Origin: an uncultured bacterium
Lineage (GTDB): Bacteria > Bacteroidota > Bacteroidia > NS11-12g > UBA9320
DNA length: 64,000 bases
Assembly (NCBI GenBank): GCA_963991985.1
Contig: CAXDRX010000001.1
Coordinates: 116,546 to 180,545, forward strand
Reading direction: 5' to 3'
Below, in pieces: positions 15,632 to 63,507 of this stretch. How positions within the stretch are numbered: position 1 is the first letter of the stretch; each line of letters begins with the position of its first letter. Below the pieces are notes generated by a model, which did not search any database, was not told the origin of the DNA, and saw only the letters and a list, made by a program, of their open reading frames with translations. Both the position numbers and the translations under genes were made by a program.

Positions 15632-16162
15632 CTAAAAAGAATAAAATGGCTCAATCATTAGGTAAACAATTACACCCGTAAAGGTAACGTATAACCATAT
15701 GGGGTAACTAAACCTTGTCATTCGCTTATGTTTCTCAAAATCATTATTTAATGCATAATAAAAAGACATCAGAACTAGAGGCAATACAATTGCAGCCAAA
15801 AGTATATGAGATACAAGGATTAAGTAGTAAAAGGTTCTCATTGCTCCTTGACCACCATAGGTTGTTTCGTCATATAACCAATGAAAAATAACATAACTCA
15901 CCAAAAAAAGAGCAGATAAAAAAAACACAGAAATATTGATTTTCTTGTGTTGCTCAATTTTTTTGGCTTTTATTTTACCCAAGCTTACCAAAAGAAGAAC
16001 GAAACATGACCCATTAATCATGGCATTTATAAAAGGCAAATGCCTTGTAAATAAAGGAATCCTTGATGGTCTGGGCAAAATATTCTCGTTGAGAACAACA
16101 ACTAAAGCCGCAACAACAATACTTACTCCTAGAACAACTCTAAAAATCTTTTTCTCGCTCAT
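15632..16162 (-). CDS. DUF420 membrane protein (cox-associated, CtaM-like)
   Basis: NAMING, FLVSYVIFH, ILVSHILLA, IWLYVTFTGVIVY. Confidence 0.88.
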   Translation of the reverse strand: MSEKKIFRVVLGVSIVVAALVVVLNENILPRPSRIPLFTRHLPFINAMINGSCFVLLLVSLGKIKAKKIEQHKKINISVFFLSALFLVSYVIFHWLYDETTYGGQGAMRTFYYLILVSHILLAAIVLPLVLMSFYYALNNDFEKHKRMTRFSYPIWLYVTFTGVIVYLMIEPFYSF

Positions 16163-16817
16163 TTTCTTCTAAATCTTTGTATTCTTTAAATAACATTTTG
16201 ATGTCTTCAACAACTTTTCGATATACATCATGAGTCCTGCTTTCGTAAATTCCTCTTATTCTTTTTTCTCGATCCACCAGAAAAAATTTTTCACTATGGA
16301 TAAAATCCACTGGATTGTCTCCAGATGTAGTTACTGCATGATAATCGTACTGAGCTAAGTCATATATTTCCGACTTCTTTCCTGTAACGAAATGCCATTT
16401 CTTCGTTTCAAATCCATAACGTTTTGAATAGTTCCGTAGTACCGCAACACTATCATGTTCTGGATGAACAGTATGGGAGATAAATTTCACTCCAGGGGTT
16501 TTTTCAAATTTTTCTACCAAATAACTTAAATTCCGATTCATTTCTGGACAAATGTCAGGGCATGATGCGAAAAAGAAATTTGCAATAAAGATTTGGTCTT
16601 CAAATGTTCTAAGATTTACACTGTCCCCCTCTTGATTAACAAATGAAAAATCTCCTATTTTGTATGGAATTGTATCCCCTGGTATTGTCTCTGTATCTCC
16701 AAGGATGGGCAAGTAATGATATACTACACGACTTTTGAATTTGTATATCACCACCCACAGGGTTGGAATTATCAAAAGGCAAATTAATGTTATAAATACT
16801 CCTATTTTTTTGGTCAT
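16140..16817 (-). CDS. SCO family copper chaperone
   Basis: FFFASCPDICP (CxxxC), HSEKF His ligand, N-terminal TM. Start 16817 overlaps the upstream TGA. Confidence 0.92.
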   Translation of the reverse strand: MTKKIGVFITLICLLIIPTLWVVIYKFKSRVVYHYLPILGDTETIPGDTIPYKIGDFSFVNQEGDSVNLRTFEDQIFIANFFFASCPDICPEMNRNLSYLVEKFEKTPGVKFISHTVHPEHDSVAVLRNYSKRYGFETKKWHFVTGKKSEIYDLAQYDYHAVTTSGDNPVDFIHSEKFFLVDREKRIRGIYESRTHDVYRKVVEDIKMLFKEYKDLEENEREKDF

Positions 16818-17176
16818 GCAGCAAACCAAGCATTTCCTTCCTGCAACATCCAAATGATGAAGAAAATAATAAAAAATACAGGTAAAATAATAGACATAAT
16901 AAGATCTACGCGCTCATGCTTTAGGTGCATAAATGTCCCCACAATATAATAGGCCTTAGCAATACCAAATACGATGAACAGAGATGCCTTTATGGGCATC
17001 GCCAAAATAGCCTCAGGGAAAAAGTATATAATGATATCGATGAGTGTAAGGCCAAGAAGAATCCAAAATTTCTGCCAAATATCCTTTGTGCCATGGCTTT
17101 CTGCTTTTGGAACCCAGGTTTCAGCTACAAAGTTTTTTTCTTCATGAATGTTTTCTGTTGTCATTTCTTGCTTCAT
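16814..17176 (-). CDS. ctaF: Cytochrome c oxidase subunit IV family protein
   Basis: KAYYIVGTFMHLKHE; three TM helices; position in the cox operon. Confidence 0.85.
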   Translation of the reverse strand: MKQEMTTENIHEEKNFVAETWVPKAESHGTKDIWQKFWILLGLTLIDIIIYFFPEAILAMPIKASLFIVFGIAKAYYIVGTFMHLKHERVDLIMSIILPVFFIIFFIIWMLQEGNAWFAA

Positions 17177-17177
17177 T

Positions 17178-17933
17178 TTAAATTAAATAGAAAAAGGTAA
17201 ATACAAATACCCATACCAAATCGACAAAGTGCCAATATAAACCTACTTTTTCTACCATCTCATAGTGACCTCTTTTGTCAAAGTCCGACCGAACGTTCAT
17301 AATATATACAATGATGTTGAGGACAACGCCACTAAATACATGAAATCCATGAAATCCGGTTACCACAAAGAAAAATGCGGCAAAATCTGGAACACCGAAT
17401 GGATTGCTCGTTAGGCTTGCCCCTTCCGTAATAAACTGGGTCCACTCCCATGCTTGACAACCAAGAAATGCAAAACCACCTAGAATGGTCATGATCATAT
17501 ATTTTGAAACCTCCTTGCGTTGCATTCTTTGTCCTGCCTCCACAGCCAAAACCATGGTAACCGAACTAAAAATGAGGATAAAAGTCATGATAGATACGAA
17601 AATTAGTGGCAAATGTATTCCATGAGCAAAAGGCAAATGATTGAAAACCAAATCGGGTGCAGGCCATGTATTCTGTGTAAAATATCCCTCATGCTGCATG
17701 GTTTCTATAAAATGTCCAAATTTATGATGCAAATCTGTCCCAAAAGGTATCTTTAAGATAGGGGCGGCAACAGAACTAAATCTAAGCGCTCCATATGCTA
17801 TCAGAAGTCCCGAAAAGGTAAAGGCATCCGAGAGGAGAAATATCCACATCATTAGCTTTCCCCAACTTACTCTAAATGGAGAGTTTCCCCCACCCCATTT
17901 TTCTAATTTAGATGGTGTTACTGCTTGGGCCAT
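17178..17933 (-). CDS. ctaE: Cytochrome c oxidase subunit III (second, CoxP-type)
   Basis: WGKLMMWIFLLSDAFTF, TGFHGFHV, GLYWHFVDLVWVFVFTFFYL. Confidence 0.92.
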   Translation of the reverse strand: MAQAVTPSKLEKWGGGNSPFRVSWGKLMMWIFLLSDAFTFSGLLIAYGALRFSSVAAPILKIPFGTDLHHKFGHFIETMQHEGYFTQNTWPAPDLVFNHLPFAHGIHLPLIFVSIMTFILIFSSVTMVLAVEAGQRMQRKEVSKYMIMTILGGFAFLGCQAWEWTQFITEGASLTSNPFGVPDFAAFFFVVTGFHGFHVFSGVVLNIIVYIMNVRSDFDKRGHYEMVEKVGLYWHFVDLVWVFVFTFFYLI

Positions 17934-17943
17934 GATTTAAGGT

Positions 17944-18519
17944 TTATTTATTCGCAAAATACAAAAACAAATATAAGTAGACCCAAAGAATACCTATAAA
18001 ATGCCAATAGGTATTTAACATGTTTATAGATAAGATATTTTTTTTGTGAATTTCCATTCGAAAAGCACGAGCAATCAAGACGAATAGCGCTACCAAACCT
18101 CCCAACAAATGGAGCCAATGAACTCCGGAAATCACATAAAAAAAACTGGCAGAAATTTTATCCCCTTTTTGAACAAAATGTAATCCCCTAGCCACCAATT
18201 CACCAAACCCAATAATTTGCAAAACAAGAAATAGGATACCAAAAAAACAGGTGATCAACAAACCAATACGGACAAATTTTATATCGTCCCGTTTTGCTGA
18301 TTGATAGGCCCATTGCATAAAGAAAGAACTGATTGCAATGATTATTGACGAATACAAAAAAGCATCTGGCAAGTCAAATTTCAACCAATTTCCTTCCTTG
18401 ATGCGAACAATATAGGCACTTGTAAATCCAGCAAATAGCATAATGATGGTAATCAAAAACAACCACAAGCTAAACTTATTGGGATTTACATTTTCTGTTG
18501 AACTTTTTGTCGTATTCAT
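17944..18519 (-). CDS. ctaE: Cytochrome c oxidase subunit III-like (first, CoxO-type)
   Basis: FAGFTSAYIVR, SGVHWLHLLGG, YWHFIGILWVYL. Confidence 0.88.
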   Translation of the reverse strand: MNTTKSSTENVNPNKFSLWLFLITIIMLFAGFTSAYIVRIKEGNWLKFDLPDAFLYSSIIIAISSFFMQWAYQSAKRDDIKFVRIGLLITCFFGILFLVLQIIGFGELVARGLHFVQKGDKISASFFYVISGVHWLHLLGGLVALFVLIARAFRMEIHKKNILSINMLNTYWHFIGILWVYLYLFLYFANK

Positions 18520-18523
18520 ACGT

Positions 18524-19375
18524 CTAAATTTTGTCTATGATGAAAAAGATATACAACAATGGATTGTATATGATAGAAGCAAACATGAGTTGCTTAGCAG
18601 ATTTCTTATCTTTATTTCTTCCCAATTTACCTGAAAAATAAATCATTCCAAGCCCCAAAAATATTGCCGCAATCAAGTAAATCTTCCCTGTCATCATAAA
18701 AATGGTAGGAAGAACTGAAACCAAAACCAACATGATGGTATACCAATAAATTAGTTGTGAAACCGAAGTCATATTCTTTGAAGGCAGTAGTTGGTAACCT
18801 GCTTTTTGGTAATCTTCTTTCAATATCCACCCAATCGACCAAAAATGTGGAAATTGCCAAATAAATTGTATGCCAAATATCAATATCCCTTGGAAGTTTA
18901 CTTCATGTGTGGCTGCAGTCCACCCGATTAGTGGTGGGAAAGCACCCGGAAATGCACCAACAAATACAGAAAAGGAACTAATCTTTTTCAAAGGGGTATA
19001 CAAAAAAGCATAAGAAATTAAAGACACAAAACCTAAAAAGGAAGACAAAGGATCAACATAAAAATACAGCAATGCAATTCCAATAAGCCCAGAAAGTAAA
19101 GCAAATACAATGGCATTCTGCTTGCTTATATTTTGAACAACCAATGGACGATTTGCAGTCCTAATCATTTGGGCATCTTGTTTGATTTCAAAAAGTTGAT
19201 TAAAGGTATTCGATGAAGATACAACCAAAAATCCGCCAAAAGCCAAAAAGACAAAAGTTGGCCACTCGAATGAATTGCATCCGATGAGATATCCAAATAA
19301 GGCTGAAAGCACAACGGTAACGGTCAACCGAAATTTTACCAACCCCACATAGGCTGAAAGCTCTGGTCTATGCAT
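18524..19375 (-). CDS. ctaB: Protoheme IX farnesyltransferase (heme O synthase)
   Basis: LVKFRL, DAQMIRTANRPL, LYTPLK, WQFPHFWSI, EDYQKAG. Start is ATG 19375 or TTG 19387. Confidence 0.93.
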   Translation of the reverse strand: MHRPELSAYVGLVKFRLTVTVVLSALFGYLIGCNSFEWPTFVFLAFGGFLVVSSSNTFNQLFEIKQDAQMIRTANRPLVVQNISKQNAIVFALLSGLIGIALLYFYVDPLSSFLGFVSLISYAFLYTPLKKISSFSVFVGAFPGAFPPLIGWTAATHEVNFQGILIFGIQFIWQFPHFWSIGWILKEDYQKAGYQLLPSKNMTSVSQLIYWYTIMLVLVSVLPTIFMMTGKIYLIAAIFLGLGMIYFSGKLGRNKDKKSAKQLMFASIIYNPLLYIFFIIDKI

Positions 19376-20369
19376 TTTGGCGAACAATTGACTTTAATGT
19401 ATAGAATTGTAAACTTAACAATAAAGCAGCAAAAAAAATGTGACTTGCTTGCCAAAATCCTGGGAAATCAAAGAATAAGTTTAAACTACCATTCAAAGCT
19501 TGAAAAAGAACAAGCAATAAAATATAAAAAGAAACCGACTTTTTTTGATACCCAAACATTCGAAATTGTAAGAAAGATAGCAACAAAACTAGAACAAATC
19601 CTAGGCGATGATATGAGAAAGATGGGCCCAAAATTTTGTACGCATTTAAATCAAAAACAACGCCTTCCGAATGTCTAAGGTCTACAATTTCTCTCACCCA
19701 AGTTCCAAAAAGAAGTTGAACAAATAAAACCACGGACAATAATACAATTGTATTCTTTTTTGGTTTGGTCGTTAAATTAAATTGAAACGGATGGCTCCAT
19801 ATGAGCGACAACAATGCAAGCATAGCGAAAAAAAAATGAAAGGTTACCATCCCACCCAGCAGATTTGAATCAACTACTTTTGATCCAATCCAGCCATTCG
19901 CTATAACCAATAAAAAACCTGCAATTGGCCACCAAAGAGATATCCTTGGATCTTTCTTGCCCAAAAGAGACAAAACCAACATCACAAATACACAAAGCCC
20001 AACCAAAGCACCCCACAAACGATTGATGTATTCTATGTACGCTTTCACAACATTAAATTGATGATTGTTTTTTAAGTATGGACTTAGCATGATGGCGTTG
20101 GCCTGACGATCCATACCAACGGATCGTAAAAAACGCACCAACTTATCGACTTTCTCCAATCTCTGTTGGTTGAAAACTTCTCGGTAATCTATCGGAAGAT
20201 CCTTCTCCACAAGAGGGGGAGCCAGCATCCCATAACATAAAGGCCAGTCAGGACAACCCATTCCAGAACCAGTACTTCGAACAAGACCGCCTAGAACAAA
20301 TAGACCAAAAACGCCGATTACCGAAAAACCCGAGAAAGTTTTGTACAAACTCCCACCAAGAAATTGCAT
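19368..20369 (-). CDS. ctaA: Heme A synthase (COX15/CtaA)
   Basis: LGGLVRSTGSGMGCPDWPLC, EYINR, VTFHFFFA, ASHIFFA. Confidence 0.88.
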   Translation of the reverse strand: MQFLGGSLYKTFSGFSVIGVFGLFVLGGLVRSTGSGMGCPDWPLCYGMLAPPLVEKDLPIDYREVFNQQRLEKVDKLVRFLRSVGMDRQANAIMLSPYLKNNHQFNVVKAYIEYINRLWGALVGLCVFVMLVLSLLGKKDPRISLWWPIAGFLLVIANGWIGSKVVDSNLLGGMVTFHFFFAMLALLSLIWSHPFQFNLTTKPKKNTIVLLSVVLFVQLLFGTWVREIVDLRHSEGVVFDLNAYKILGPSFSYHRLGFVLVLLLSFLQFRMFGYQKKSVSFYILLLVLFQALNGSLNLFFDFPGFWQASHIFFAALLLSLQFYTLKSIVRQNA

Positions 20370-20373
20370 TCTT

Positions 20374-22239
20374 TTATGCTACCCCTTGATTAAATCCAAA
20401 CCAACGCTTTAGAAGAGTAGAGAATGAAACACTTGTATCCACCATTTCTTTCTCCTCCTTCGTGGGATTGAGCTCTGGTGAAATTAAGGGATCTGTTTGC
20501 CCCTCTTCTGGAACTGTCTGTAGAATAAAGTCTTCTTCTGCACCAGGCTTGCTGTAATCATAAGCCCATCGATAAACTGTGGGTAATTCACCCGCCCAAT
20601 TGCCATGAATTCCTTCGATAGGTGAAGTCCATTCCAATGTATTGGCTTTCCACGGATTTTGTGGCGATTTTTCCCCAATAAACATACTGCTAAAGAAGTT
20701 GTAAATAAAAATCAATTGAGCAATTCCACCAATGATGGCAGCAATGGTAATTAGTACATTCACATCCATCCAAACACCGTATTCGGGTAGCAAAGTAAAC
20801 TGATAGTATCGCCTTGGAACACCTGCCAATCCCATAAAATGCATTGGAAAGAAAACCAAATACGCAGAAATAAACGTCAACCAAAAATGAATGTAACCAA
20901 GTGGCTTATTCATCAATCTCCCAAACATTCTTGGATACCAATGGTAAATTCCCGCCAACATCCCAAAAATTGCCGAGGCGCCCATAACAATGTGAAAGTG
21001 CGCCACCACAAAATATGTGTCGTGGAGTTGAATATCTAGGGTAGCATTTCCTAGCCATATTCCTGTCAATCCCCCAGAAATAAATAAAGAGACCAATCCT
21101 ATCGCAAACATCATCCCATTGGTAAATCTCAAGTTACCCCGCCACAAAGTAGCAAGATAATTGAATACTTTAACCGCTGAAGGAACTGCAATGATGAGCG
21201 TGGTAATAAGAAAAACTGTGCCCAAGAAAGGATTCATGCCTGTAATAAACATGTGATGTCCCCAGACAATAAATGAAAGAAATGAAATTCCCAAAAGCGA
21301 AATCACCATGGCTCGGTAGCCAAAAATGGGCTTTCTTGAGTTGACCGAAATCACCTCAGAGGCAATGCCCAAAGCAGGCATAATGATGATGTAAACTTCG
21401 GGATGTCCTAGAAACCAGAAAAGATGCTGAAATAAAATTGGACTTCCGCCCGTATGCTCCAATGCACCTACTCCACTTAAGTAAATATCTGACAGGTAAA
21501 AGCTAGTTCCTGCCAGTCGATCAAACATTAAAAACAAGCCACCCGACAAAAGCACAGGAAAGGACAACAAACCAACTATAGCTGTAAACAATAAAGCCCA
21601 GACAGTAAGAGGCATCCTACTCATACTCATTCCTTTTGTTCTCATATTGAGGATGGTTGAAATGTAATTGATCCCTGCCATCAGTTGAGATACTATGAAA
21701 AGAACAATAGACGTCAGCCACAGGGTCATACCCAAGCCAGAACCAGCCATGGCTTGTGGCAAAGCAGAAAGTGGAGGATAAACAGTCCAACCACCGGAAG
21801 CAGGACCCGTTTGTACAAAAAACGAGCTCATCAAAACCAAAGTTGACAAAAAGAAAAACCAATACGACAGCATATTGAGTGTGGGAGAAGCCATGTCGCG
21901 CGCGCCCACCTGCAATGGAATAAGCAAATTGGCAAATGTACCGCTAAGACCTGCGGTTAGAACCCAAAACACCATAATAGTGCCATGGATGGTTACCAAA
22001 GCCATGTAATAGCCTGGGTCCAATTTTCCTTCTGGAGCCCATTTGCCAAAAAACCATTCCAAGATTGGAAAACTGGTGTCAGGGTAAGCCAATTGCAAAC
22101 GAAACAATATAGACATTGTCATTCCAATGACACCCATAACAATTCCTGTGATCAGGAACTGTTTGCTTATCATTTTGTGGTCTCTACTAAAAATGTACTT
22201 AGAGACAAAACTTTCCTTGTGGTGTTCGTGTGTGCTCAT
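20374..22239 (-). CDS. ctaD: Cytochrome c oxidase subunit I, A1 type
   Basis: TIHGTIM, GARDMA/LN (D-channel), FWFLGHPEVY, WGHHM, VKVF (K-channel), AHFH, PRRY. Confidence 0.97.
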   Translation of the reverse strand: MSTHEHHKESFVSKYIFSRDHKMISKQFLITGIVMGVIGMTMSILFRLQLAYPDTSFPILEWFFGKWAPEGKLDPGYYMALVTIHGTIMVFWVLTAGLSGTFANLLIPLQVGARDMASPTLNMLSYWFFFLSTLVLMSSFFVQTGPASGGWTVYPPLSALPQAMAGSGLGMTLWLTSIVLFIVSQLMAGINYISTILNMRTKGMSMSRMPLTVWALLFTAIVGLLSFPVLLSGGLFLMFDRLAGTSFYLSDIYLSGVGALEHTGGSPILFQHLFWFLGHPEVYIIIMPALGIASEVISVNSRKPIFGYRAMVISLLGISFLSFIVWGHHMFITGMNPFLGTVFLITTLIIAVPSAVKVFNYLATLWRGNLRFTNGMMFAIGLVSLFISGGLTGIWLGNATLDIQLHDTYFVVAHFHIVMGASAIFGMLAGIYHWYPRMFGRLMNKPLGYIHFWLTFISAYLVFFPMHFMGLAGVPRRYYQFTLLPEYGVWMDVNVLITIAAIIGGIAQLIFIYNFFSSMFIGEKSPQNPWKANTLEWTSPIEGIHGNWAGELPTVYRWAYDYSKPGAEEDFILQTVPEEGQTDPLISPELNPTKEEKEMVDTSVSFSTLLKRWFGFNQGVA

Positions 22240-22249
22240 TTTTCTTTGT

Positions 22250-23986
22250 TTAATTTATACTGGCCAAATTTTGTTTTGGGGGTTCAACACTTTCGTGGAT
22301 TTGATCTACGAAAATGCCCGACTTTTCAGACAACCATTGATTGTAAGACTTTTGATCTTCTACAATTACTTTTAATTTCATATTGAAATGGGCATTTCCA
22401 CAAATTTTATTACACACCAAATAGTAATCAAAGTCTTTGTTTTTCTTTTTTGAACGCATCTCCTTACTGGTAATTATAGGTGTAAAAGTAAATTCTGTAG
22501 GCAAACCAGGGACCACATTCATTTGCGTTCTAAAGTGGGCAAAATAAGCTGAATGAATAACATCTCTCGCTCTAAACTTCATGGTTACTGGCTTATTCAC
22601 TACGAGGTGAATTTCATCGTCTACCACAATATCGTCATTCCCTTTTTGATCATACATATTCCCCTCCTCAACTGCTAATGATTGATTGATTCTTTCGATT
22701 TGAACGTTTTTTCTTTTGATGGCTCTTCTATATTCACCAAGTTTTTCACCACTTTCCAAAGCCTTCATTTTCTCTTGGTGAGATTTTTGTTCTTCTCCCA
22801 TCAAACCTCCATAACTAGCCTTCAATTCTCCCAATTTTATGGGAATCTCTTGGATTTCTTTTTCTATCCCCTCAATTTCTTCCTGTAAAGTTTCAATCAA
22901 TAATTTGGCCTCTGTTCGATTGGCAATTCCCAACTCATTCGTAGAGGATATTAAATTGTAACTGGCCTTACCCAGCTGATTGTCTTCTCCTGGATAGCGG
23001 GCTTTCCAACCAAACTGATAGGCGAACAACTCAATCTTTTGGGTATTTTCCGTATCCACATAAACAATTTTTTGCCATGTCTGCAAACCCCTTGTCACCA
23101 AAAGCGTAAGGAAAATGGCTGGAATAATCGTCCAAACCAATTCCAGTTTATCATTAACAGGGTAATAAAGCGCCTTCTGGTTCGGTTTTTCTTGATATCG
23201 AAATGAGAAAAAGAATAGTAAGAATTGGGTAATAAAAAATACAATAGAGGTAATGATGAGAGTAGTGGTCATCATGTTGTCGATCCAAACTCCATGCTCA
23301 CTAGCTGCACTGCCGAGCAAAGTATATTTTCCATGAATGGTAAATTCATAAATGGTCAATCCAAACAATGCTGCAAGGAAGATTAGAAATAGATTGCCAT
23401 TCAATCTGTTCCATCGAATCAAATCTTTACCCAGCAGTTTGCTCACATTGTCCAAAATCTTAAAGAGCAGAATAATCATCGCCAACAGGGCAAGCAGAAT
23501 AAGCGCCAAGCCCCAACTAACCTTTTTTACCATCTCTTTGGAGGGAGCAGCAGAAACGGTCTCCGTCTTCCCTGTCCCACCTGAAGGTGATCCTCCACCT
23601 GCCGAAGCATCCTCAATATACATTACAATACTCCCAATTTCTTCGTCACTCAAGTTTTCAAAATTGTTCATTATTTGCGGCTTGTATTGTTCCCAAACCG
23701 CCAAGGCTTGTACATCGCCAGATTTGATCATTTTCTGACTATTTCTGATCCATTTTTTCAACCAATCAAAATCATATTTTTCATGAACATTTTTTAGCGC
23801 AGGACCAACCAATTTGTTGTTCAATGCGTGACAGGATGCGCATTTGCTGGCATATAACTTTTTTCCATTGGCGATGTAAGATTCAGAAATCTCAAAACCT
23901 GTAATAGTTTGGTCCAATGCCATAAGATTTGGCACTTCGAAAAAAAGACAAAAAAACAGAGTGAGGATCAGAGCAATTATTCTCAT
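22250..23986 (-). CDS. ctaC: Cytochrome c oxidase subunit II with N-terminal monoheme cytochrome c domain and an insertion in the CuA domain
   Basis: Signal peptide, CASCH...IM, four TM helices, ASEHG, KLELVWTIIP, YQFGW, DVIHS, CNKICGNAHFNM. Start 23986 is supported by the -7 element at 23998-24005. Confidence 0.95.
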   Translation of the reverse strand: MRIIALILTLFFCLFFEVPNLMALDQTITGFEISESYIANGKKLYASKCASCHALNNKLVGPALKNVHEKYDFDWLKKWIRNSQKMIKSGDVQALAVWEQYKPQIMNNFENLSDEEIGSIVMYIEDASAGGGSPSGGTGKTETVSAAPSKEMVKKVSWGLALILLALLAMIILLFKILDNVSKLLGKDLIRWNRLNGNLFLIFLAALFGLTIYEFTIHGKYTLLGSAASEHGVWIDNMMTTTLIITSIVFFITQFLLFFFSFRYQEKPNQKALYYPVNDKLELVWTIIPAIFLTLLVTRGLQTWQKIVYVDTENTQKIELFAYQFGWKARYPGEDNQLGKASYNLISSTNELGIANRTEAKLLIETLQEEIEGIEKEIQEIPIKLGELKASYGGLMGEEQKSHQEKMKALESGEKLGEYRRAIKRKNVQIERINQSLAVEEGNMYDQKGNDDIVVDDEIHLVVNKPVTMKFRARDVIHSAYFAHFRTQMNVVPGLPTEFTFTPIITSKEMRSKKKNKDFDYYLVCNKICGNAHFNMKLKVIVEDQKSYNQWLSEKSGIFVDQIHESVEPPKQNLASIN

Positions 23987-23997
23987 AAATGTTTGTA

Positions 23998-24005
23998 CAA
24001 ATTTA
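23998..24005 (-). promoter_or_regulatory. -7 promoter element TAAATTTG for the cox operon
   Basis: Exact TAnnTTTG 11 nt upstream of ATG 23986. Confidence 0.6.
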
Positions 24006-24146
24006 TCCATAGCACCACATTCGAAGCAAAAAAGATGAAAAAAAATTTTCCACAACAGAATTTAGAAAACGTTTAAATAAAATATGGTCACAAAAGGAGT
24101 TTTTTTCGGTACAACTAACTGAAAACCAAACGAATGTTAGTTGTTG

Positions 24147-55562: not shown

Positions 55563-56936
55563 TTACGGACCCACTTCGTGGTTGGCACTTTCCAAAACAA
55601 AAGGGTGATTTTTTGGATAAAGGTCTGCCTTAGACAAAGAATTTCTTACGATATAAGAGAAAAGACCAAAGAAAAATATGCCAAAACCTATTTCAATAAG
55701 TCCAATATTTGCTTTTTCCCCTACTACGCCTGGCATAACCATCAAATATATGTCCAGCCAGTGTCCGACCAAGATAAGTCCTCCACCAATCAGTGTGATG
55801 TATTTATTTCTTTTGGCATAACGAGCGATTAGAATCAAAAATGGCAAAAAGAAGTTCATTACAATATTGGCAACAAAAAATGGATAATATTTGCTCACCC
55901 ATCTTTCGTAGAAGTAAATACTTTCTTCAGGTAAATTTGCGTACCAAATCAGTAAAAATTGCGCCAACCATATGTAAGCCCAAAAAATAGAGAATCCGAA
56001 CATAAATTTAACCAAATCATCCAAAATTTCTTCATCAACCAAATTTAGATAACCTTGCCCTTTTAAAAACAAAACCAAAAAAGTAATCACCGTAACAGAA
56101 CTTACAAACATGATTGCAAAATTGTATACAGAAAATATTGTACTAAACCAGTGAGGATCAATACTCATCATTATGAGCCATGTAAATACAGAAAAAGTAA
56201 AAGCAAATATGACAATGAATGCTGCCGAGAAGCGGATAGATTTCTGAAAAAAAGAAATTCCACCTTCTACATCTTCTTTGAGCGATAATTTCCTGAGTGT
56301 GGTTCTTAAAGCAAACCAAATGGCAACAAAAATAATGGGTGCTATATACAACCAATTTTTATTTAAAAACCATGTTTTTCCATCCAGAAGTTTGTCTGCG
56401 GGCAACTCATTTTTGTGGTTATTGTAATAAAGCCATTCATAAAGGTGCTCACCTCCAAAATAGACTGCAATCATGAGCAAAACAAAACCGATAGGAATAA
56501 ATGCACTCATAGATTCAGCCACTCTTTTAATAAGCGTTGCCCACCCTGCATTTGCAACATAGTTGACCGCGACAAAAAACAAACCTCCTACAGCAAAAAG
56601 GAAAAAATAATACGCATTTACTAAGAAAGAGGCCCAAACACGACTAAGCCAACCTGTGGTATGATGCCCTTCGAGATGACTTTCTGAGTGGGTATGATGT
56701 TCTTCAAGGTCTTTGGAATGAGCATTCGAATGCGATAGGGATCCATCATGATGTTCAACGTGACTTCCTTGAATTTCTTCAACATTATGTTGTGAATGCC
56801 AAGATTTTTTTAATGTTGAAGCACCAATTCCTGCCAACAGTAAACCCAACAACATAATCAAGCCAGTTACAACACGACCTCTTTTTGAAAAAACATATTT
56901 TTCATTCGGTAATTCGGTAATATAGTGATGTCCCAT
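55563..56936 (-). CDS. actF: Alternative complex III subunit ActF
   Basis: NrfD-like polytopic protein, AGWA..IKRVAE, PHWFST, IWYAN.PEE; His-rich loop; last gene of the act cluster. Confidence 0.9.
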   Translation of the reverse strand: MGHHYITELPNEKYVFSKRGRVVTGLIMLLGLLLAGIGASTLKKSWHSQHNVEEIQGSHVEHHDGSLSHSNAHSKDLEEHHTHSESHLEGHHTTGWLSRVWASFLVNAYYFFLFAVGGLFFVAVNYVANAGWATLIKRVAESMSAFIPIGFVLLMIAVYFGGEHLYEWLYYNNHKNELPADKLLDGKTWFLNKNWLYIAPIIFVAIWFALRTTLRKLSLKEDVEGGISFFQKSIRFSAAFIVIFAFTFSVFTWLIMMSIDPHWFSTIFSVYNFAIMFVSSVTVITFLVLFLKGQGYLNLVDEEILDDLVKFMFGFSIFWAYIWLAQFLLIWYANLPEESIYFYERWVSKYYPFFVANIVMNFFLPFLILIARYAKRNKYITLIGGGLILVGHWLDIYLMVMPGVVGEKANIGLIEIGFGIFFFGLFSYIVRNSLSKADLYPKNHPFVLESANHEVGP

Positions 56937-56940
56937 ATTT

Positions 56941-57546
56941 TTATTTTTCTACATTAGGTTGATCGTACACAAACTCATCTCCTAGGCTTAAACTTCGAAC
57001 ATAATGAATGACTTTCCATCTCTCTGAAGGCGTAAGCATGTGAGCGTGAGAACCCATTAATCCTTTCCCATGTGTAATGGTATGATAGATTTTCCCATTA
57101 GGGAGTTCCTTTATGTATTGGCTTGTATATCCCTCCCAAGGTACACCAATGTAACCTTGTTTTACGACAGGACCATCATTGTTTCCATTTTTACCGTGGC
57201 AGTGCCAGCAATAAATCTCATATAGTTTTTTCCCTTGCGCAATATTTTCTTCCGTTTTTGGTATAGTGGACCTAAAAGTAGCAGCAGCCTCATAACCCTC
57301 CAAAGTATTTGGGTGAGGATATTGATAGTCCAACTGACCTTTTGCAATGGTTCCTTTTACTGGAAGTCTGGAGGACATCTTTTTCGGGTTATAAGACCAT
57401 CCTTCCTCCAACTGACTGTATGGTTCTGGTGTCTTTGAAATATACATATTAGGAGCATATTCATATCCTGGATGATTTCCTTTTGATGTACACCCTTGCC
57501 AAATAATAGTCAAAATTGAGATGATGTAAAGGAATGAATTATTCAT
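56941..57546 (-). CDS. actE: Alternative complex III monoheme cytochrome c lipoprotein ActE
   Basis: Lipobox WQGC, YAPNMY, CWHCH, ITHGKGLMG, ERW.VIHYV. Start moved to ATG 57546. Confidence 0.9.
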   Translation of the reverse strand: MNNSFLYIISILTIIWQGCTSKGNHPGYEYAPNMYISKTPEPYSQLEEGWSYNPKKMSSRLPVKGTIAKGQLDYQYPHPNTLEGYEAAATFRSTIPKTEENIAQGKKLYEIYCWHCHGKNGNNDGPVVKQGYIGVPWEGYTSQYIKELPNGKIYHTITHGKGLMGSHAHMLTPSERWKVIHYVRSLSLGDEFVYDQPNVEK

Positions 57547-58120
57547 CTTTTTTGGTTTTTTCTGTATTTCTTTCATAAAATTCAACTGCCCCTTCTTCCT
57601 TAATTAAGGCTTCAAATTCTTTTTTACTAATATTTAATTTTTGAGGTTCGACAGCGAGTACAAGTCTGTCATCTGTTTGGCGGATATCAATCAAATCTTC
57701 TTCAATACCATGAACCATTCTTGACCGAGCAAAAAATAAGATTCCCATACCAAAGGCAGTAAACAGTATCGTTAACTCAAATGTTACCGGCACAAAACTT
57801 GGTATTACTCGCCAATCCAATGGTTTTCCACCAATGATCATTGGCCAGCTTTTAAAAGTGCCAAAGGTATCGGTCATCGTATAGAGTTGTAAAGAAATTC
57901 CACACAAAAAACCAACCAAACCACAGAGAAACGCACCAAAAACTAATCTCGATCTTTTGACACCCATGGCCTTATCCAAATTGTGCACTGGGTAGGGTGT
58001 GTAACAGTCAAAAATCTCTATACCTCTTTCTCTCAGATTAACAACTGTTTGATACAACTTATCTCCATCGTTAAAAATACCGATAAGCAAATTTTTCTTT
58101 AGTATATTTTTTGCTGCCAT
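57539..58120 (-). CDS. actD: Alternative complex III subunit ActD (DUF3341)
   Basis: YTPYPVHNLD, WPMIIGGKP, PVTFE.TILF. Confidence 0.9.
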   Translation of the reverse strand: MAAKNILKKNLLIGIFNDGDKLYQTVVNLRERGIEIFDCYTPYPVHNLDKAMGVKRSRLVFGAFLCGLVGFLCGISLQLYTMTDTFGTFKSWPMIIGGKPLDWRVIPSFVPVTFELTILFTAFGMGILFFARSRMVHGIEEDLIDIRQTDDRLVLAVEPQKLNISKKEFEALIKEEGAVEFYERNTEKTKKDE

Positions 58121-58121
58121 A

Positions 58122-59468
58122 TTACTCTTTATCGTTGATTATACTCTTTACTTCTGCCATATTGATGATGGGCAGATATCTTAGAAATAAGAAAAAACAA
58201 GTGAAAAATAGGCCCAAAGTACCCAAGAACAGCGCGACCTCTGTAAATGTAGGCATATACAAGACCCAAGACGAGGGAAGATAGTCCCTATGAAGCGATG
58301 TTACAATGATAACAAATCGCTCAAACCACATCCCTATATTTACAACAATCGACATCATAAAAATGAACCATGGTGTTGTTCTAGACCACTTAAACCAAAA
58401 AACTTGGGGTGCAATTAAGTTACAAAACATCATCGTCCAATAAGCCCATGCAAAAGGGCCCGTGGCTCTGTTTAAAAATGCATATTGCTCATACTGAACC
58501 CCTGAATATTGAGCAATAAAAAATTCCGTTAGATACGCCAAACCAACCATTGACCCGGTTAGCATGATGACCTTTGTCATTGCATCCAAATGATTGATGG
58601 TGATGTAGTTTTCTAGGCTTAATATTTTTCGAGCAATCACCAATAGGGTGAGAACCATACCGAAGCCGGAAAAAATCGCACCTGCAACAAAATAGGGAGG
58701 GAATATGGTGGTATGCCAACCTGGGATCACTGAAGTTGCAAAATCAAAGGATACGATGGTATGAACAGACAAAACCAAAGGTGTAGAAATACCTGCCAAT
58801 ATTAGAGATACAATTTCGTATCGGTGCCAAGTGCGCGTTGATCCATTCCAACCCATGGAGAAAAAACCATAGACTGCTTTGCTAACCTTATTTTTTGCTC
58901 TGTCACGAATGGTGGCGATATCTGGGATAAGACCCAAATACCAAAACAGAAGGGAAACTGAAAAATATGTTGAAATAGCGAATACGTCCCAAAGAAGAGG
59001 TGAATTAAAATTCACCCAGAGTGAACCAAATGCGTTGGGCAAAGGAAGCACCCAATAAGCCAGCCATACTCTTCCCATATGAAACAAAGGATAAATAGCG
59101 GCGCATATTACGGCAAATATTGTCATTGCTTCTGCCGATCGATTGATCGCCATTCTCCACTTTTGTCTGAAGAGGAGCAGTATTGCCGATATGAGCGTAC
59201 CTGCATGTCCTATACCTACCCAAAATACGAAGTTTGTAATATCCCAAGCCCAAAAAACAGTTTTATTTACCCCCCATGTTCCAATACCAACCGTTACGGT
59301 ATTGTAAAGTGCCCATACCATCAGCATCAAAAAAAGGAAAGACACAGAGAAGCCCATCAACCAGCCTCGAGTCGTTTTACTTTCAACTGACTTCAACACG
59401 TCGTTTGTTACGTCCGCAATTTTTTTGTCTCCTTGAACAAGCTTATTTCTTATTTCTGCTATGTACAT
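58122..59468 (-). CDS. actC: Alternative complex III quinol-binding subunit ActC (NrfD/PsrC family)
   Basis: WAWDITNFVFWVGIGHAGTLISA, HMGR, SPLLWDVFA, PGWHTTIFPPYF, WFERFVI. Confidence 0.95.
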   Translation of the reverse strand: MYIAEIRNKLVQGDKKIADVTNDVLKSVESKTTRGWLMGFSVSFLFLMLMVWALYNTVTVGIGTWGVNKTVFWAWDITNFVFWVGIGHAGTLISAILLLFRQKWRMAINRSAEAMTIFAVICAAIYPLFHMGRVWLAYWVLPLPNAFGSLWVNFNSPLLWDVFAISTYFSVSLLFWYLGLIPDIATIRDRAKNKVSKAVYGFFSMGWNGSTRTWHRYEIVSLILAGISTPLVLSVHTIVSFDFATSVIPGWHTTIFPPYFVAGAIFSGFGMVLTLLVIARKILSLENYITINHLDAMTKVIMLTGSMVGLAYLTEFFIAQYSGVQYEQYAFLNRATGPFAWAYWTMMFCNLIAPQVFWFKWSRTTPWFIFMMSIVVNIGMWFERFVIIVTSLHRDYLPSSWVLYMPTFTEVALFLGTLGLFFTCFFLFLRYLPIINMAEVKSIINDKE

Positions 59469-59476
59469 TTTTTATG

Positions 59477-62400
59477 TTATGAGTGATGATTACTTTTCCC
59501 TTCCTCTTTTACGTTCCTTATTTTGGTCATATACATGATGGAGGGTTTCACGTCCAATTCTTCCAGTGCATGGTAAGACCTGTCATTTTCATAGAGTTTT
59601 GAAATTTTGCTCTCACGGTCATTTAAATCTCCAAAAACAATAGCACCGGTAGGGCAAGTCTGCGCACAAGCAGTCTTCACTTCATTTGATTTAAGTTTTC
59701 GGTTTTCTCTTTTGGCATTCAATTTGGTTTCTTGAATTCTTTGAACACAAAAGCTACATTTCTCCATCACACCTCGAGAACGAACTGTTACGTCTGGGTT
59801 GATAACCATTTTACCTAAGTCATTGTTAAAATAGAAATCGAATTTGTCGTTGTCGTAATATTTAAACCAATTGAATCTCCTCACTTTATACGGACAGTTG
59901 TTGGCACAATACTTTGTTCCCACGCAACGATTGTAAGTCATTTGATTCAATCCTTCTGAAGAGTGCGTTGTTGCCAAAACTGGACAAACCGTTTCACAAG
60001 GGGCATTGTCACAGTGCTGACACAACATGGGTTGATAGACCACTCGAACATTTTCATAATGAGATTGCTCTTTATTAATTTGACTTGTTTTTGCAATTTT
60101 CTTTTCCTCGGTGAGATATTCATCCTCGTGCGCAAAAGAATAGTAACGATCAATTCTGAGCCAAGTCATCTCACGACGTCTTATAATTTCATCTTTACCA
60201 ACAACAGGAACATTATTTTCAATACTGCAACTCACAACACATGCATGGCATCCGTTACACTTATTGAGGTCTATGGCCATGGCCCAATGATGCCCCTCTT
60301 TGTAGTCATGATTTCTCCACAGAGAGACCAAGTTGTGTTTGTGTTCGTTTCTTACTTTCGGGTTTGCCTTGTATTCGTCTATACTCGCTTCCCTTACAAT
60401 ATCTCGAGCCTCTATCGAATGATGGGTTTGTGTTTGCGCCATTTTCTGACGTTCCCCCGTTTTTTCTATCGAAACATTGGGTAGGGTGTATTTTTCTGAA
60501 GATTTTTTATGATTTACCAAAACATAGGCATTCGCCCCCAGATTGTTTAAATCATTTTGGGTTTTTGAAATGTGATTTCTACCATATCCTAGCGCAATAC
60601 CTATCGTTTGATTCGTTTGGCCTGGTTGAATATAGGCTGGCAATGTTATGCTTAGATTGCCCGTTGAAATTTTAACAATATCCCCCGTTGAAATTGATTT
60701 TTCATCTGCCAACAATTTGGAAATGGTTGCATAATTGTCCCAACAGATTTTGGAAACTGGATCTGGCATTTCATGAATCCATGGTGTTGGTGCATCACAG
60801 CCATCGCGCGGACCTACTTTTTGGTACAGGTTAAGCTCGAGATTGTTGTTGCCCAATTGCGTTTCTTGGGCAATCTTTTGAGCTTCTGATTCATAATTAA
60901 TGGAAAAAGAGACAGGTACACTAATTTCATTTTTTTCAAAAAAACCCTGTTCTATTGCTTCATTAAAATTGGAACGAATCCAAAATTTCTTTAGGTCTAG
61001 ATATGTTTTTGAAAAGCCTTCTTCGCCCAACACATTTTCACCACTCCAAGCCAAAAGTGACTCGTAAGCCTGTCTTGTATTAAACACTCTAGAAATTGTT
61101 GGCTGAGAAAAAACATAGCTTCCGTGGACCGGTTCAAAAACGTTCCAGGACTCAAGAAAATGATTGTCAGGACATACATAATCAAAATCCTTATTGGTTT
61201 CATCGAGATGCGTATGAATCGCAACTTTAAGCTCCACTTTAGAAATGAGCTTTTCTAATTCAGAACCAATAGGACTCGCATAAATAGGATTTGCATTTTT
61301 AACAATTAAAGCACCAATTTTATTGTTTTTTAAATCCTCAACAAATTGGTAAAATTTCTCCGAATCATACTTCGTGATGTTGGAATAATTTGTTAAATCA
61401 ATGGTTTCTCCATAACTGCCCAACATGTTATTAATTGCATTCACTATAATTTGATTTTCCACCAAATTAGAGCCGGATACTACAAGAGATTTTCCTTTGT
61501 TTCTCCAAAGAGATTTTGCTGCATTTTTAATCATTCCTCCGGCCACTTCGAGTTCATCCTTGATCGGCATTTGTCTCCATCCAGCCAATTTGGCAATTTC
61601 GTTGTGAAGTTTTATAAGATGCAAACCTTCTCTTGAGGCTTTGATGGGTAAACGATAGTCTGCATTCGAGCCAGTCATGGACAGGTTTGCTTCAAATTGA
61701 AAATGCTGATTCATATCACCCGCGTGATTTGGCGATTTAAATTCGGCATAATCTTGGGCATATTTGTTCGATTCGAGCCAAGTACCTAAAAAGTCGCAAT
61801 TAAAGGATGCTATTACTTTTGCTTTATCAAATCGGTAGCTTGGTATAACTCTTTTCCCAAAGGACTTTTCATTTGCCTTGAGCATACCTTGGTAAGAAAT
61901 CGCATCAAAAAGCACGTGCTCAACATTGTTATATCTATCCTTTATTTTTTCAATTGCTTTTCCATGGAGCAGGCTATTATCGGTATTAGAAAGAAAAATT
62001 ATTTTCTTTCCCTTGGTGGAAATGTTTTTTAGACCTTTCAAAATATTTTCATCAATTTTCTGCCAATCGCCGGTTACTAGCTTGCCCTCAATTCTTTCCA
62101 TAGGGCTCTCAATTCGGTTTGTGTCGTAAAGGGAAAGAAGAGATGAATGTGCATTTGCCAGAAGATTTCCACTTACGATCTTTGAATTTTTATTGGGTTC
62201 GAATTTTATCGGTCTTCCTTCTCGAGTTTTTACCAAAGCTGGAACAACTTGATTGTTCACTACAATAGCCGATGCATAATACAAGGCACTTGAGGGCGTT
62301 ATTTGCTCTGGCTTTTCTACGTAAGGCACCGCATACTTTACCGGAGTTTTGTTGCATGCTGCAAGCGTCACCGCACCCAAACTAAATCCAAAAATCTTGA

Positions 62401-62554
62401 GAAAATCTCTTCGATTGGTATTTAAGGCCTGGTCACCATCTATGGCTTGTTCAAGTGGTAAGCCTTCAAAAAACTCATTGCGTTTGTCTTGTTGAAATTC
62501 TGGAGAATTCTCTAGTTCTTCAATTCCTCTCCAATATTGTTGATTATTACCCAT
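59477..62554 (-). CDS. actB: Alternative complex III subunit ActB (molybdopterin-oxidoreductase-like plus Fe-S domain; Tat lipoprotein)
   Basis: YWRGIEEL, RRDFLK...LAAC, CNGCHAC, CQHCDNAPCETVCP, CVGTKYCANNCP, EKCSFC, CAQTCP. Confidence 0.95.
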   Translation of the reverse strand: MGNNQQYWRGIEELENSPEFQQDKRNEFFEGLPLEQAIDGDQALNTNRRDFLKIFGFSLGAVTLAACNKTPVKYAVPYVEKPEQITPSSALYYASAIVVNNQVVPALVKTREGRPIKFEPNKNSKIVSGNLLANAHSSLLSLYDTNRIESPMERIEGKLVTGDWQKIDENILKGLKNISTKGKKIIFLSNTDNSLLHGKAIEKIKDRYNNVEHVLFDAISYQGMLKANEKSFGKRVIPSYRFDKAKVIASFNCDFLGTWLESNKYAQDYAEFKSPNHAGDMNQHFQFEANLSMTGSNADYRLPIKASREGLHLIKLHNEIAKLAGWRQMPIKDELEVAGGMIKNAAKSLWRNKGKSLVVSGSNLVENQIIVNAINNMLGSYGETIDLTNYSNITKYDSEKFYQFVEDLKNNKIGALIVKNANPIYASPIGSELEKLISKVELKVAIHTHLDETNKDFDYVCPDNHFLESWNVFEPVHGSYVFSQPTISRVFNTRQAYESLLAWSGENVLGEEGFSKTYLDLKKFWIRSNFNEAIEQGFFEKNEISVPVSFSINYESEAQKIAQETQLGNNNLELNLYQKVGPRDGCDAPTPWIHEMPDPVSKICWDNYATISKLLADEKSISTGDIVKISTGNLSITLPAYIQPGQTNQTIGIALGYGRNHISKTQNDLNNLGANAYVLVNHKKSSEKYTLPNVSIEKTGERQKMAQTQTHHSIEARDIVREASIDEYKANPKVRNEHKHNLVSLWRNHDYKEGHHWAMAIDLNKCNGCHACVVSCSIENNVPVVGKDEIIRRREMTWLRIDRYYSFAHEDEYLTEEKKIAKTSQINKEQSHYENVRVVYQPMLCQHCDNAPCETVCPVLATTHSSEGLNQMTYNRCVGTKYCANNCPYKVRRFNWFKYYDNDKFDFYFNNDLGKMVINPDVTVRSRGVMEKCSFCVQRIQETKLNAKRENRKLKSNEVKTACAQTCPTGAIVFGDLNDRESKISKLYENDRSYHALEELDVKPSIMYMTKIRNVKEEGKSNHHS

Positions 62555-62563
62555 TTTTTTCTC

Positions 62564-63478
62564 TTAATAATGACACTTACTACACTCCAATCCACCATTT
62601 TGAGCTACGGTATAGAAGGCTTTTCCTTCCAACTTCATTTTTTTATGAATCTCCTCGTAGTAGTCGTTGTTTTTGGCATCAATACCACGCTGCCTATGGC
62701 AATTGATGCACCACCCCATTTGAAGATTACTGTATTGATATACCTTCTCCATTTCCTCAATTGGACCATGGCATAATTGACATTCTAAATTACCCACCTT
62801 AACATGTTGAGAGTGATTGAAATAAGCCAAATCGGGCAAATTATGTATTCTTACCCACTTTATTGGCTTTTGGTCATAGTCTTTGATGTATCGTGCTTGT
62901 TCAGCATCGTAGCCCACCGCATCATATATTTTTTGAATTTCTGGTGAAACTTCCCCATCGTATTTTTCTCTTGCTTGGACGCCTTTATGGCAGTTCATAC
63001 AGGTATTGGCGCTCGGAATGCTTGCAGACTTTGCATAGGAAGCAGTTGAATGGCAATATTGACATTCAATTTGAAGCTTTCCCGCATGTAAAGCGTGGCT
63101 ATATGCAATGGGCTGTTCAGGAGCATAACCTTTTTGGACACCCACTTTTTTGTTGGCAAAATTAAAAAACCAAGCCCCAAACAACAATATTAAAACCGTA
63201 CCAACAGAAAGAGAGGCAATAATTGGATTCCATTGGGACACTATGGGTTTTATTTTTGATTGAAAAAAAGAAGGTGAAGGAATCTCTCCCTCTTTTTCAT
63301 GGATGATTCTTTTTAGATTTTTATTGAGTACATTCAACAATAAAACCAACAAAACCATTACTCCTAAAAGAATAAGGAGAGAGGTATAGCTATTGGATGA
63401 ATAAAAGGCGGACTGAGCAAAAAGTACGTTTTGGGAAAGAAAAGTATATAGCGTGATTGAGAAGATTTTTTTTGACAT
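62564..63478 (-). CDS. actA: Alternative complex III pentaheme cytochrome ActA (no N-terminal monoheme domain)
   Basis: Five CxxCH: CQYCH, CMNCH, CQLCH, CINCH, CSKCH; QPIAYSH.LHAG; WVRIHNLPD; YFNHSQH. Start is ATG 63478 (track: TTG 63481). Confidence 0.95.
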   Translation of the reverse strand: MSKKIFSITLYTFLSQNVLFAQSAFYSSNSYTSLLILLGVMVLLVLLLNVLNKNLKRIIHEKEGEIPSPSFFQSKIKPIVSQWNPIIASLSVGTVLILLFGAWFFNFANKKVGVQKGYAPEQPIAYSHALHAGKLQIECQYCHSTASYAKSASIPSANTCMNCHKGVQAREKYDGEVSPEIQKIYDAVGYDAEQARYIKDYDQKPIKWVRIHNLPDLAYFNHSQHVKVGNLECQLCHGPIEEMEKVYQYSNLQMGWCINCHRQRGIDAKNNDYYEEIHKKMKLEGKAFYTVAQNGGLECSKCHY

Positions 63479-63507
63479 CAATGTATGGTCGAATCGTTAA
63501 CTCGAGG

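Follow-up and report, generated by a model that had tools for sequence, protein, structure and literature searches.

We analyzed a 64-kb window of DNA from an uncultured marine bacterium of the phylum Bacteroidota, in which the gene ctaC encodes subunit II of an aa3-type oxidase; all coordinates below are positions in this window. On the minus strand, an open reading frame (ORF) runs uninterrupted from 22250 to 24055, and the ATG at 24010 yields a CtaC protein of 586 amino acids (aa), with ctaD directly downstream. This CtaC carries at its N-terminus a monohaem cytochrome c domain of the type known from ActA, a subunit of alternative complex III (ACIII), and the ActA encoded in the same window lacks that domain. 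The features of the gene and its product are listed here, each with the evidence that supports it (TM, transmembrane; AF2, AlphaFold2; pLDDT, predicted local distance difference test):

22250..24010, minus strand: ctaC, aa3-type oxidase subunit II with N-terminal cytochrome c domain, 586 aa (continuous ORF, Pfam, Foldseek)
23918..24010, minus strand: signal peptide, aa 1-31, with hydrophobic core IIALILTLFFCLFF (translation; AF2 helix 2-23)
23609..23875, minus strand: class I monohaem cytochrome c domain, aa 46-134 (PF00034; match to 6BTM_A)
23828..23842, minus strand: haem-binding motif C57-A-S-C60-H61 (invariant in 55 homologues)
23669..23671, minus strand: M114 (invariant column in 55 homologues)
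23540..23602, minus strand: flexible Gly/Ser/Pro/Thr/Ala linker, aa 137-157 (AF2 pLDDT; linker-length comparison)
23321..23539, minus strand: extra two-helix hairpin, TMa and TMb, aa 158-230 (AF2 helices 158-193 and 200-230)
23060..23299, minus strand: canonical subunit II TM helix pair, aa 238-317 (PF02790; AF2 helices; alignment with R. sphaeroides subunit II)
22328..23041, minus strand: CuA cupredoxin domain, aa 324-561, with a helical insert at aa 365-446 (PF00116; AF2 strands and helices, pLDDT ~90)
22379..22414, minus strand: CuA ligand loop C533-x3-C537-x3-H541-x2-M544, with H486 upstream (invariant in 55 homologues)

The translation, the Pfam matches and the AF2 model agree on this order of parts, as the original prediction had proposed: a cytochrome c domain behind a signal peptide, then a linker, four TM helices and the CuA domain. 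The peptide strings quoted in that prediction are present in the translation, and the span to which it pointed, 23519-23986, corresponds to aa 9-164 and takes in the signal peptide, the cytochrome c domain and the linker. Pfam places Cytochrom_C (PF00034) at aa 46-134 (E 1.9e-13, 52 bits, cut-off 21.3) and COX2_TM (PF02790) at aa 243-304 (29.8 bits, cut-off 22.8); COX2 (PF00116), at aa 459-546, scores 20.7 bits, just below its 22-bit cut-off, because an insert of ~80 residues splits the cupredoxin domain. The AF2 model, built on a 55-sequence alignment, has a mean pLDDT of 81 and shows a helix for the signal segment at the N-terminus, the helices of the cytochrome c domain, four further, long helices (158-193, 200-230, 238-271 and 287-317) and the cupredoxin domain, with pLDDT below 50 at aa 141-153 of the linker. 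When this model was compared with the PDB by Foldseek, the top matches were subunit II chains of aa3 oxidases (TM-score 0.65-0.71). The ligand residues of both metal centers are conserved: C57, C60 and H61 of the CxxCH motif, M114, H486, C533, C537, H541 and M544 are all invariant in the 55 homologues. By analogy with other class I cytochromes c, M114 is likely the distal haem ligand, and the signal peptide is likely cleaved after L-M-A.

With its TM pair, cupredoxin domain, CuA ligand set and gene context beside ctaD and the genes for haem A synthesis, this CtaC is subunit II of an A-type haem-copper oxidase. It departs from the family at the electron-entry site, where the tryptophan of the Q-W-Y-W motif (W143 of R. 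sphaeroides) is replaced: the aligned motif is Q332-F333-G-W335. This Q-F-G-W variant (listed at 23009-23020, minus strand, as aa 331-334) has its Phe invariant in the 55 homologues and occurs also in unfused CtaC of Bacteroidota; F333 is a variant of the entry site and no ground for excluding CtaC from the family.

The fusion is continuous in independent DNA and in RNA. Single contigs from three independent metagenomes (marine, estuary and seawater) cover 22900-24100 at a match of at least 99%, with no indel and no joint, and a metatranscriptome contig covers 23403-23955, across the junction between linker and first TM helix, which shows that the fusion is transcribed. The same architecture recurs in more than 118 protein clusters (90% identity) from independent sources, and the same continuous ORF is found in 32 genome loci, single-cell genomes among them. 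An artefact, in which misassembly or a sequencing error would have run ctaC together with an independent cytochrome c gene, is refuted by these contigs and loci, and we regard its probability as negligible; misassembly was one of the conditions under which the original prediction would have fallen.

To establish the kinship of the cytochrome c domain, we compared it with all PDB sequences. The best match is residues 55-153 of 6BTM_A, ActA of Flavobacterium johnsoniae (E 4.6e-21, ~50% identity); 6BTM is reportedly the ACIII-aa3 supercomplex structure of Sun et al. 2018, and the ActA string given in the original prediction matches residues 55-110 of its chain A. The second match, the SCO1/SenC-cytochrome c fusion 2L4D, is weaker by nine orders of magnitude (E 5e-12); it has the signature W..W...D.M....D in common with the CtaC domain, but belongs to a copper chaperone that is attached neither to an oxidase subunit nor to ACIII. 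No cytochrome c domain of a caa3 oxidase appears among the 76 PDB matches of the domain at E≤1, and the caa3 chain 2YEV_B aligns only to CtaC residues 254-340, in the TM part. CtaC does not have the makeup of a caa3 subunit IIc: its sole CxxCH lies at aa 57-61, the protein ends 25 residues past the CuA domain without a C-terminal cytochrome c, and at the level of PDB sequence search its domain shows no kinship to caa3 domains.

A search of 1.84 billion representative proteins (E≤1e-3) defined a family of 4184 representative proteins that carry the domain. The hosts are ActA with six haems, ActA with seven haems (two tandem copies of the domain), CtaC of ~590 aa, CtaC of ~490 aa, dihaem proteins of ~300 aa, an 801-aa protein and the SCO1/SenC fusion 2L4D. 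Many apparently standalone cytochromes c of 120-260 aa in this search proved to be N-terminal fragments of ActA or CtaC and do not count as architectures of their own. The window domain shares 57% of its residues with its best CtaC-borne match and 53% with a domain from 6-haem ActA. In the domain tree it falls in a group (support 100/96) that comprises seven long-CtaC domains and both domains of the 7-haem ActA P0246, and in the sister of this group (91/83) the short-CtaC domains are mixed with the domain of F. johnsoniae and those of a large 6-haem ActA clade. Constraining all CtaC-borne domains to stand together costs 44 log-likelihood units (approximately unbiased (AU) test, p = 0.035, 96 columns). 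The tree that the original prediction had called for, with ActA domains set against other cytochromes c, thus favors an ActA-type domain: outside CtaC, its nearest relatives are the N-terminal domains of ActA.

In its construction, too, this is an ActA-type tethered domain. It belongs to class I, with CxxCH and a distal Met, and sits at the N-terminus behind a signal peptide, with a flexible linker to a TM helix; it differs in its host, which is CtaC and not a pentahaem ActA. The linkers are of similar length in both hosts, with medians of 13-18 residues between the end of the domain profile and the first TM helix in the CtaC- and ActA-borne forms, or about 21-26 residues when measured from the last helix of the domain.

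The breadth of the family leaves room for another interpretation, in which the oxidase receives electrons through the domain from a source outside ACIII, such as a dehydrogenase of the periplasm or a cytochrome of sulfur oxidation, and the likeness of the domain to ActA reflects common descent only. The dihaem proteins, the 801-aa protein and 2L4D are consistent with this, as are SoxX matches in an NCBIfam scan, which were weak and far below cut-off; no NCBIfam model reached its cut-off. However, the nearest relatives of the domain are ActA domains, its position correlates with the state of ActA (below), and ACIII has been described as the only electron source of the F. johnsoniae aa3 oxidase (PMC8552683). 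We consider a donor other than ACIII very improbable.

Two further forms in the family deserve mention. ActA with two tandem N-terminal monohaem domains ahead of the hairpin and pentahaem part is represented by P0245, P0246, P0248, P0249, P0257, P0277, P0280, P0295, P0298, P0333 and P0378; in most of these the tandem copies are each other's nearest relatives, indicating independent duplications. The dihaem proteins of ~300 aa (P0251-P0275 and similar), which have two copies of this domain type and a C-terminal TM helix, form a separate clade in the larger domain tree.

The second protein on which the argument turns is ActA itself. The window contains a complete act operon, actA to actF (55563-63478), on the same strand as the cox operon and 31 kb from it:

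62564..63478, minus strand: actA, pentahaem ActA without the monohaem domain, with a signal-like N-terminus, FYSS motif, two-helix hairpin and five CxxCH (translation; Pfam multihaem families only)
55563..62554, minus strand: actB, actC, actD, actE (monohaem) and actF of ACIII (Pfam Fer4, NrfD, ActD, Cytochrom_C)

As the original prediction implied, this ActA is without the monohaem domain: it has exactly five CxxCH motifs and no PF00034 domain, and the only ORFs in the window with CxxCH besides CtaC are those for ActA (five), ActE (one) and ActB (one). Its N-terminus consists of a signal-like segment, an FYSSNS motif and a two-helix hairpin. Profile comparison with hhalign shows that the hairpin of 5-haem ActA is homologous to that of 6-haem ActA (probability 99.2%, E 3e-19). 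The FYSS-type motif lies at residue 25 in the window ActA; its median position is 30 in 5-haem ActA (115 of 120 proteins), and it lies at about 141 in 6-haem ActA, a shift of ~111 residues between the two forms. Given this homology and this shift, the window ActA looks like a 6-haem ActA from which domain and linker have been lost. All 120 of its nearest ActA homologues are 261-337 aa long and have no PF00034. In a tree of the pentahaem part (midpoint root, modest support), 5-haem ActA is nested among the 6- and 7-haem forms, beside P0246 and the large 6-haem clade.

Some details of act gene annotation were also recorded. The database call of the window ActA (P0123, 264 aa) begins inside the first TM helix; the ORF 62564-63481 (minus strand) permits an ATG at 63478 that adds the signal-like segment and FYSS, and the calls of homologues use either the long or the short start. 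In the complete genome of Bacteroidetes bacterium UKL13-3 (L081, CP012155.1, 17100-20700), no actF is called after actE, and ~2.5 kb downstream of that gene there is one for a transposase (DDE_Tnp_1). In two further records that contain this same ActA, the actF position is occupied by a gene of 436 aa.

To determine how widely the fusion is distributed, we took one genome per species and classified the CtaC genes with hidden Markov models. The resulting 80 species-level loci fall into three types:

Cytochrome c, hairpin and core: 32 of 80 loci (16 long, with the helical insert, and 16 short); act operon within 10 kb in none
Signal peptide, short stub, hairpin and core, without cytochrome c: 26 of 80 loci; act operon within 10 kb in none
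Beginning directly at the hairpin, without cytochrome c: 22 of 80 loci; act operon directly upstream in 15

The fusion is therefore common and not special to this genome, being present in 32 of the 80 loci and in the many clusters noted above. The reverse arrangement is found for the unfused CtaC that starts at the hairpin. There ActA has six haems and the N-terminal domain in all 14 loci that show the full gene (a count that includes L049, where one haem motif is masked by ambiguous bases), so unfused CtaC is paired with six-haem ActA, as the original prediction implied. In the tree of the CtaC core, the hairpin-start type (21 rows) and the other two types together (58 rows) each have a support of 99; an apparent exception, L056, is truncated by a contig end. 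The hairpin-only CtaC is sister to three fused forms and has therefore probably lost its cytochrome c domain. Outside the window, a fused CtaC, 53% identical to that of the window, lies together with a 5-haem ActA on a JGI contig of 979 kb. The nearest named genome to the window is the marine metagenome-assembled genome 'Bacteroidetes bacterium MED-G17', with a CtaC of 82% identity.

The two additional TM helices did not arrive with the domain; they are native to the CtaC of Bacteroidota, being present in every such protein examined, the unfused ones included. A phmmer alignment of CtaC 12-229 with ActA 16-243 had suggested transfer of the whole module, membrane anchor included. This is ruled out by the universal presence of the hairpin and by profile comparison, in which the CtaC and ActA hairpins reach a probability of only 4-27%, against 99.2% between the ActA forms; the CtaC hairpin has no detectable homology to that of ActA.

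Several observations on these CtaC types stand apart from the argument. The 26 hairpin-only loci (L015-L041) encode a CtaC whose signal peptide is followed by a periplasmic stub without haem, 35-60 residues long, and by the four TM helices; one subgroup of the stubs has a QPPxEF..W.W motif. Two short proteins (P0119 and P0120, 415-423 aa) at first taken for unfused close relatives proved to be truncated gene calls, their starts falling within the first TM helix. The cupredoxin insert of the window CtaC (22673-22918, minus strand, aa 365-446), ~80 residues in four helices with pLDDT ~90, is found in long fused and hairpin-only CtaC, is shorter in unfused CtaC and is not found in the fused forms of ~490 aa; it might contact ACIII or other subunits.

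Downstream of ctaC, the remainder of the cox operon is organized as follows:

20374..22239, minus strand: ctaD, oxidase subunit I (PF00115, E 2.8e-139)
15632..20369, minus strand: ctaA, ctaB, two CoxIII-like genes, CoxIV, SCO1/SenC and DUF420 (Pfam)

The operon is closed, after SCO1/SenC, by the DUF420 gene (15632-16162, minus strand), DUF420 being the family of CtaM, an assembly factor of the Bacillus oxidase. The two CoxIII-like genes adjoin each other (251 and 191 aa, 17178-18519, minus strand), and each matches only the C-terminal five-helix part of COX3, which fits the report that subunit III of F. johnsoniae lacks helices 1-2 (PMC8361435).

What role could such a domain play on subunit II? 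In F. johnsoniae, the N-terminal sixth haem of ActA is the proposed mobile shuttle to the aa3 oxidase; ActE is dispensable there, and the final carrier is assumed to be the mobile, unresolved domain of ActA (PMC8552683). Sousa et al. noted that the sixth-haem domain of ActA appears to stand in functionally for the cytochrome c domain of caa3 oxidases (PMC5928083). The CtaC domain resembles that of F. johnsoniae ActA (6BTM; Lorencik et al. 2021, PMC8552683) in family, in its position behind a signal peptide, in the disordered linker that leads to a TM helix with a periplasmic N-terminus and, by analogy, in its presumed job between ACIII and CuA. Unlike in F. johnsoniae, the host is subunit II and not ActA, the membrane anchors are non-homologous and, unlike in the lineages with an ActA-borne domain, where act and cox are adjacent, the two operons lie 31 kb apart.

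We propose, with a probability of about 0.7, that this CtaC is an aa3-type subunit II in which the cytochrome c that delivers the electrons is part of the polypeptide, hung from its N-terminus by a flexible tether, the ActA-type domain being gone from ActA. Export and cleavage of the signal peptide would place the monohaem domain in the periplasm, tied by a disordered linker of ~20 residues to the first of the four TM helices; a flexible tether at this point would keep the domain within reach of CuA on the same polypeptide. Electrons would then pass from menaquinol through ACIII (the five-haem wire of ActA, with ActE) to the tethered cytochrome c, and on to CuA, haem a and the haem a3-CuB center. 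In this scheme the domain would take its electron at the end of the ACIII haem chain, from ActE or from the last haem of ActA, move, and pass it to CuA. Such an oxidase would have its carrier built in, as caa3 does, but the carrier would be of the ActA type and sit at the other end of subunit II; with ACIII it may form a supercomplex of a different architecture.

The likeness to caa3 oxidases (Thermus thermophilus 2YEV, Rhodothermus marinus and Bacillus subtilis) lies in a subunit II with a covalently attached monohaem electron entry, and it gives rise to the main mechanistic rival of this proposal: that the N-terminal domain is permanently docked on CuA and fed by ActE or a diffusible carrier, the linker providing connectivity only, without shuttling. 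The R. marinus ACIII has a 5-haem ActA, and its ActE directly feeds a fixed caa3 domain (PMC5928083, PMC8552683); the window has a like pairing of 5-haem ActA, ActE and an oxidase-borne cytochrome c, and the absence of act-cox linkage in all 32 fused loci fits a self-contained oxidase. In caa3 oxidases the fusion is C-terminal, after CuA, and the domain is packed against CuA, while here it is N-terminal, with four TM helices and a flexible linker in between. Against permanent docking, the domain is not of the caa3 type, and the linker is disordered and equal in length to that of the mobile ActA domain. Permanent docking thus appears unlikely to us, although less so than a donor outside ACIII. 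A further comparison is with the tethered carriers of III-IV supercomplexes, the membrane-anchored cytochrome cy and the dihaem QcrC of Actinobacteria (PMC8361435), in which a diffusible carrier is likewise replaced by a fixed one; they differ in carrier protein, anchor and partner complex (bc1 or bcc, not ACIII).

How did the domain come to be on CtaC? The ActA- and CtaC-borne copies are interleaved in the tree, indicating that a module was exchanged between both proteins more than once, although the rejection by the AU test of a single origin for the CtaC-borne domains is only marginal. This module would consist of signal peptide, cytochrome c and linker; because ActA and CtaC both begin with a TM helix whose N-terminus is periplasmic, each can accept it at its front.

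The main evolutionary rival holds that the fusion is an addition and not a relocation: ancestral copies on both ActA and CtaC would have formed a relay of two stations between which electrons hop, and the lineage of the window would have lost the ActA copy. Several observations favor this and weigh against the simple re-tethering of the carrier that the original prediction envisaged. Each subgroup of CtaC-borne domains pairs in the tree with its own subgroup of ActA-borne domains. The domains of the fused CtaC of ~490 aa are on average 62%, and at most 77%, identical to those of the large 6-haem ActA clade, which equals the similarity of the short-CtaC domains to one another. The same lake metagenome runs yielded exact matches to a short fused CtaC and to a 6-haem ActA, so that in some genomes both proteins may carry the domain, which would make re-tethering a special case. 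The complete UKL13-3 genome has a 6-haem ActA operon without adjacent cox genes, as is also the case in genomes with fused CtaC. Also against simple re-tethering, the genome could hold, outside the window, another act operon, an ActA with six haems or soluble cytochromes c.

On the other side, the same run is not the same genome, and no single genome has been shown to contain both proteins with the domain; in the two genomes where both genes are visible and CtaC is fused (the window and the JGI contig), ActA has five haems. Three 6-haem ActA proteins looked up as exact sequences matched none of the 80 assemblies. We consider an ancestral relay possible but doubtful. To a broader account we give slightly more credence than to the relay, though still tentatively and at less than even odds. 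The module would have passed between ActA and CtaC several times across the Bacteroidota, with intermediates carrying it on both proteins and derived forms on neither (the hairpin-only CtaC of 26 loci). Its location would track whether act and cox form a single operon and might determine whether the supercomplex is obligate. The CtaC-borne forms would then constitute a large class of 'c-aa3' oxidases, tethered at the N-terminus and carried by aquatic bacteria that are abundant.

Both components of this arrangement are known separately: cytochrome c on subunit II from caa3 oxidases, and a tethered cytochrome c on ActA. What is new is the ActA-type domain at the N-terminus of subunit II together with a matching 5-haem ActA, in a form that is common in public sequence data. 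Our literature search found no description of an N-terminal cytochrome c on subunit II, although a passing mention elsewhere is possible. The source databases name the fused proteins only 'c-type cytochrome' or 'cytochrome c oxidase subunit 2', and the fused CtaC scores under the NCBIfam cut-off for CoxB; because of such names and scores, inventories of the oxidases that Bacteroidota of marine and fresh waters possess can overlook subunit II or give it a wrong name.

The fusion characterizes a whole clade and is no curiosity of one genome. A large clade of aquatic Bacteroidota has the domain on the oxidase together with a five-haem ActA, and its sister clade shows the reverse. How electrons leave ACIII is unsettled, and these clades offer a natural swap experiment: their comparison would bear on whether electrons must pass through the domain as last carrier, whether movement of the domain is necessary, and whether ActE becomes essential when ActA is without it.

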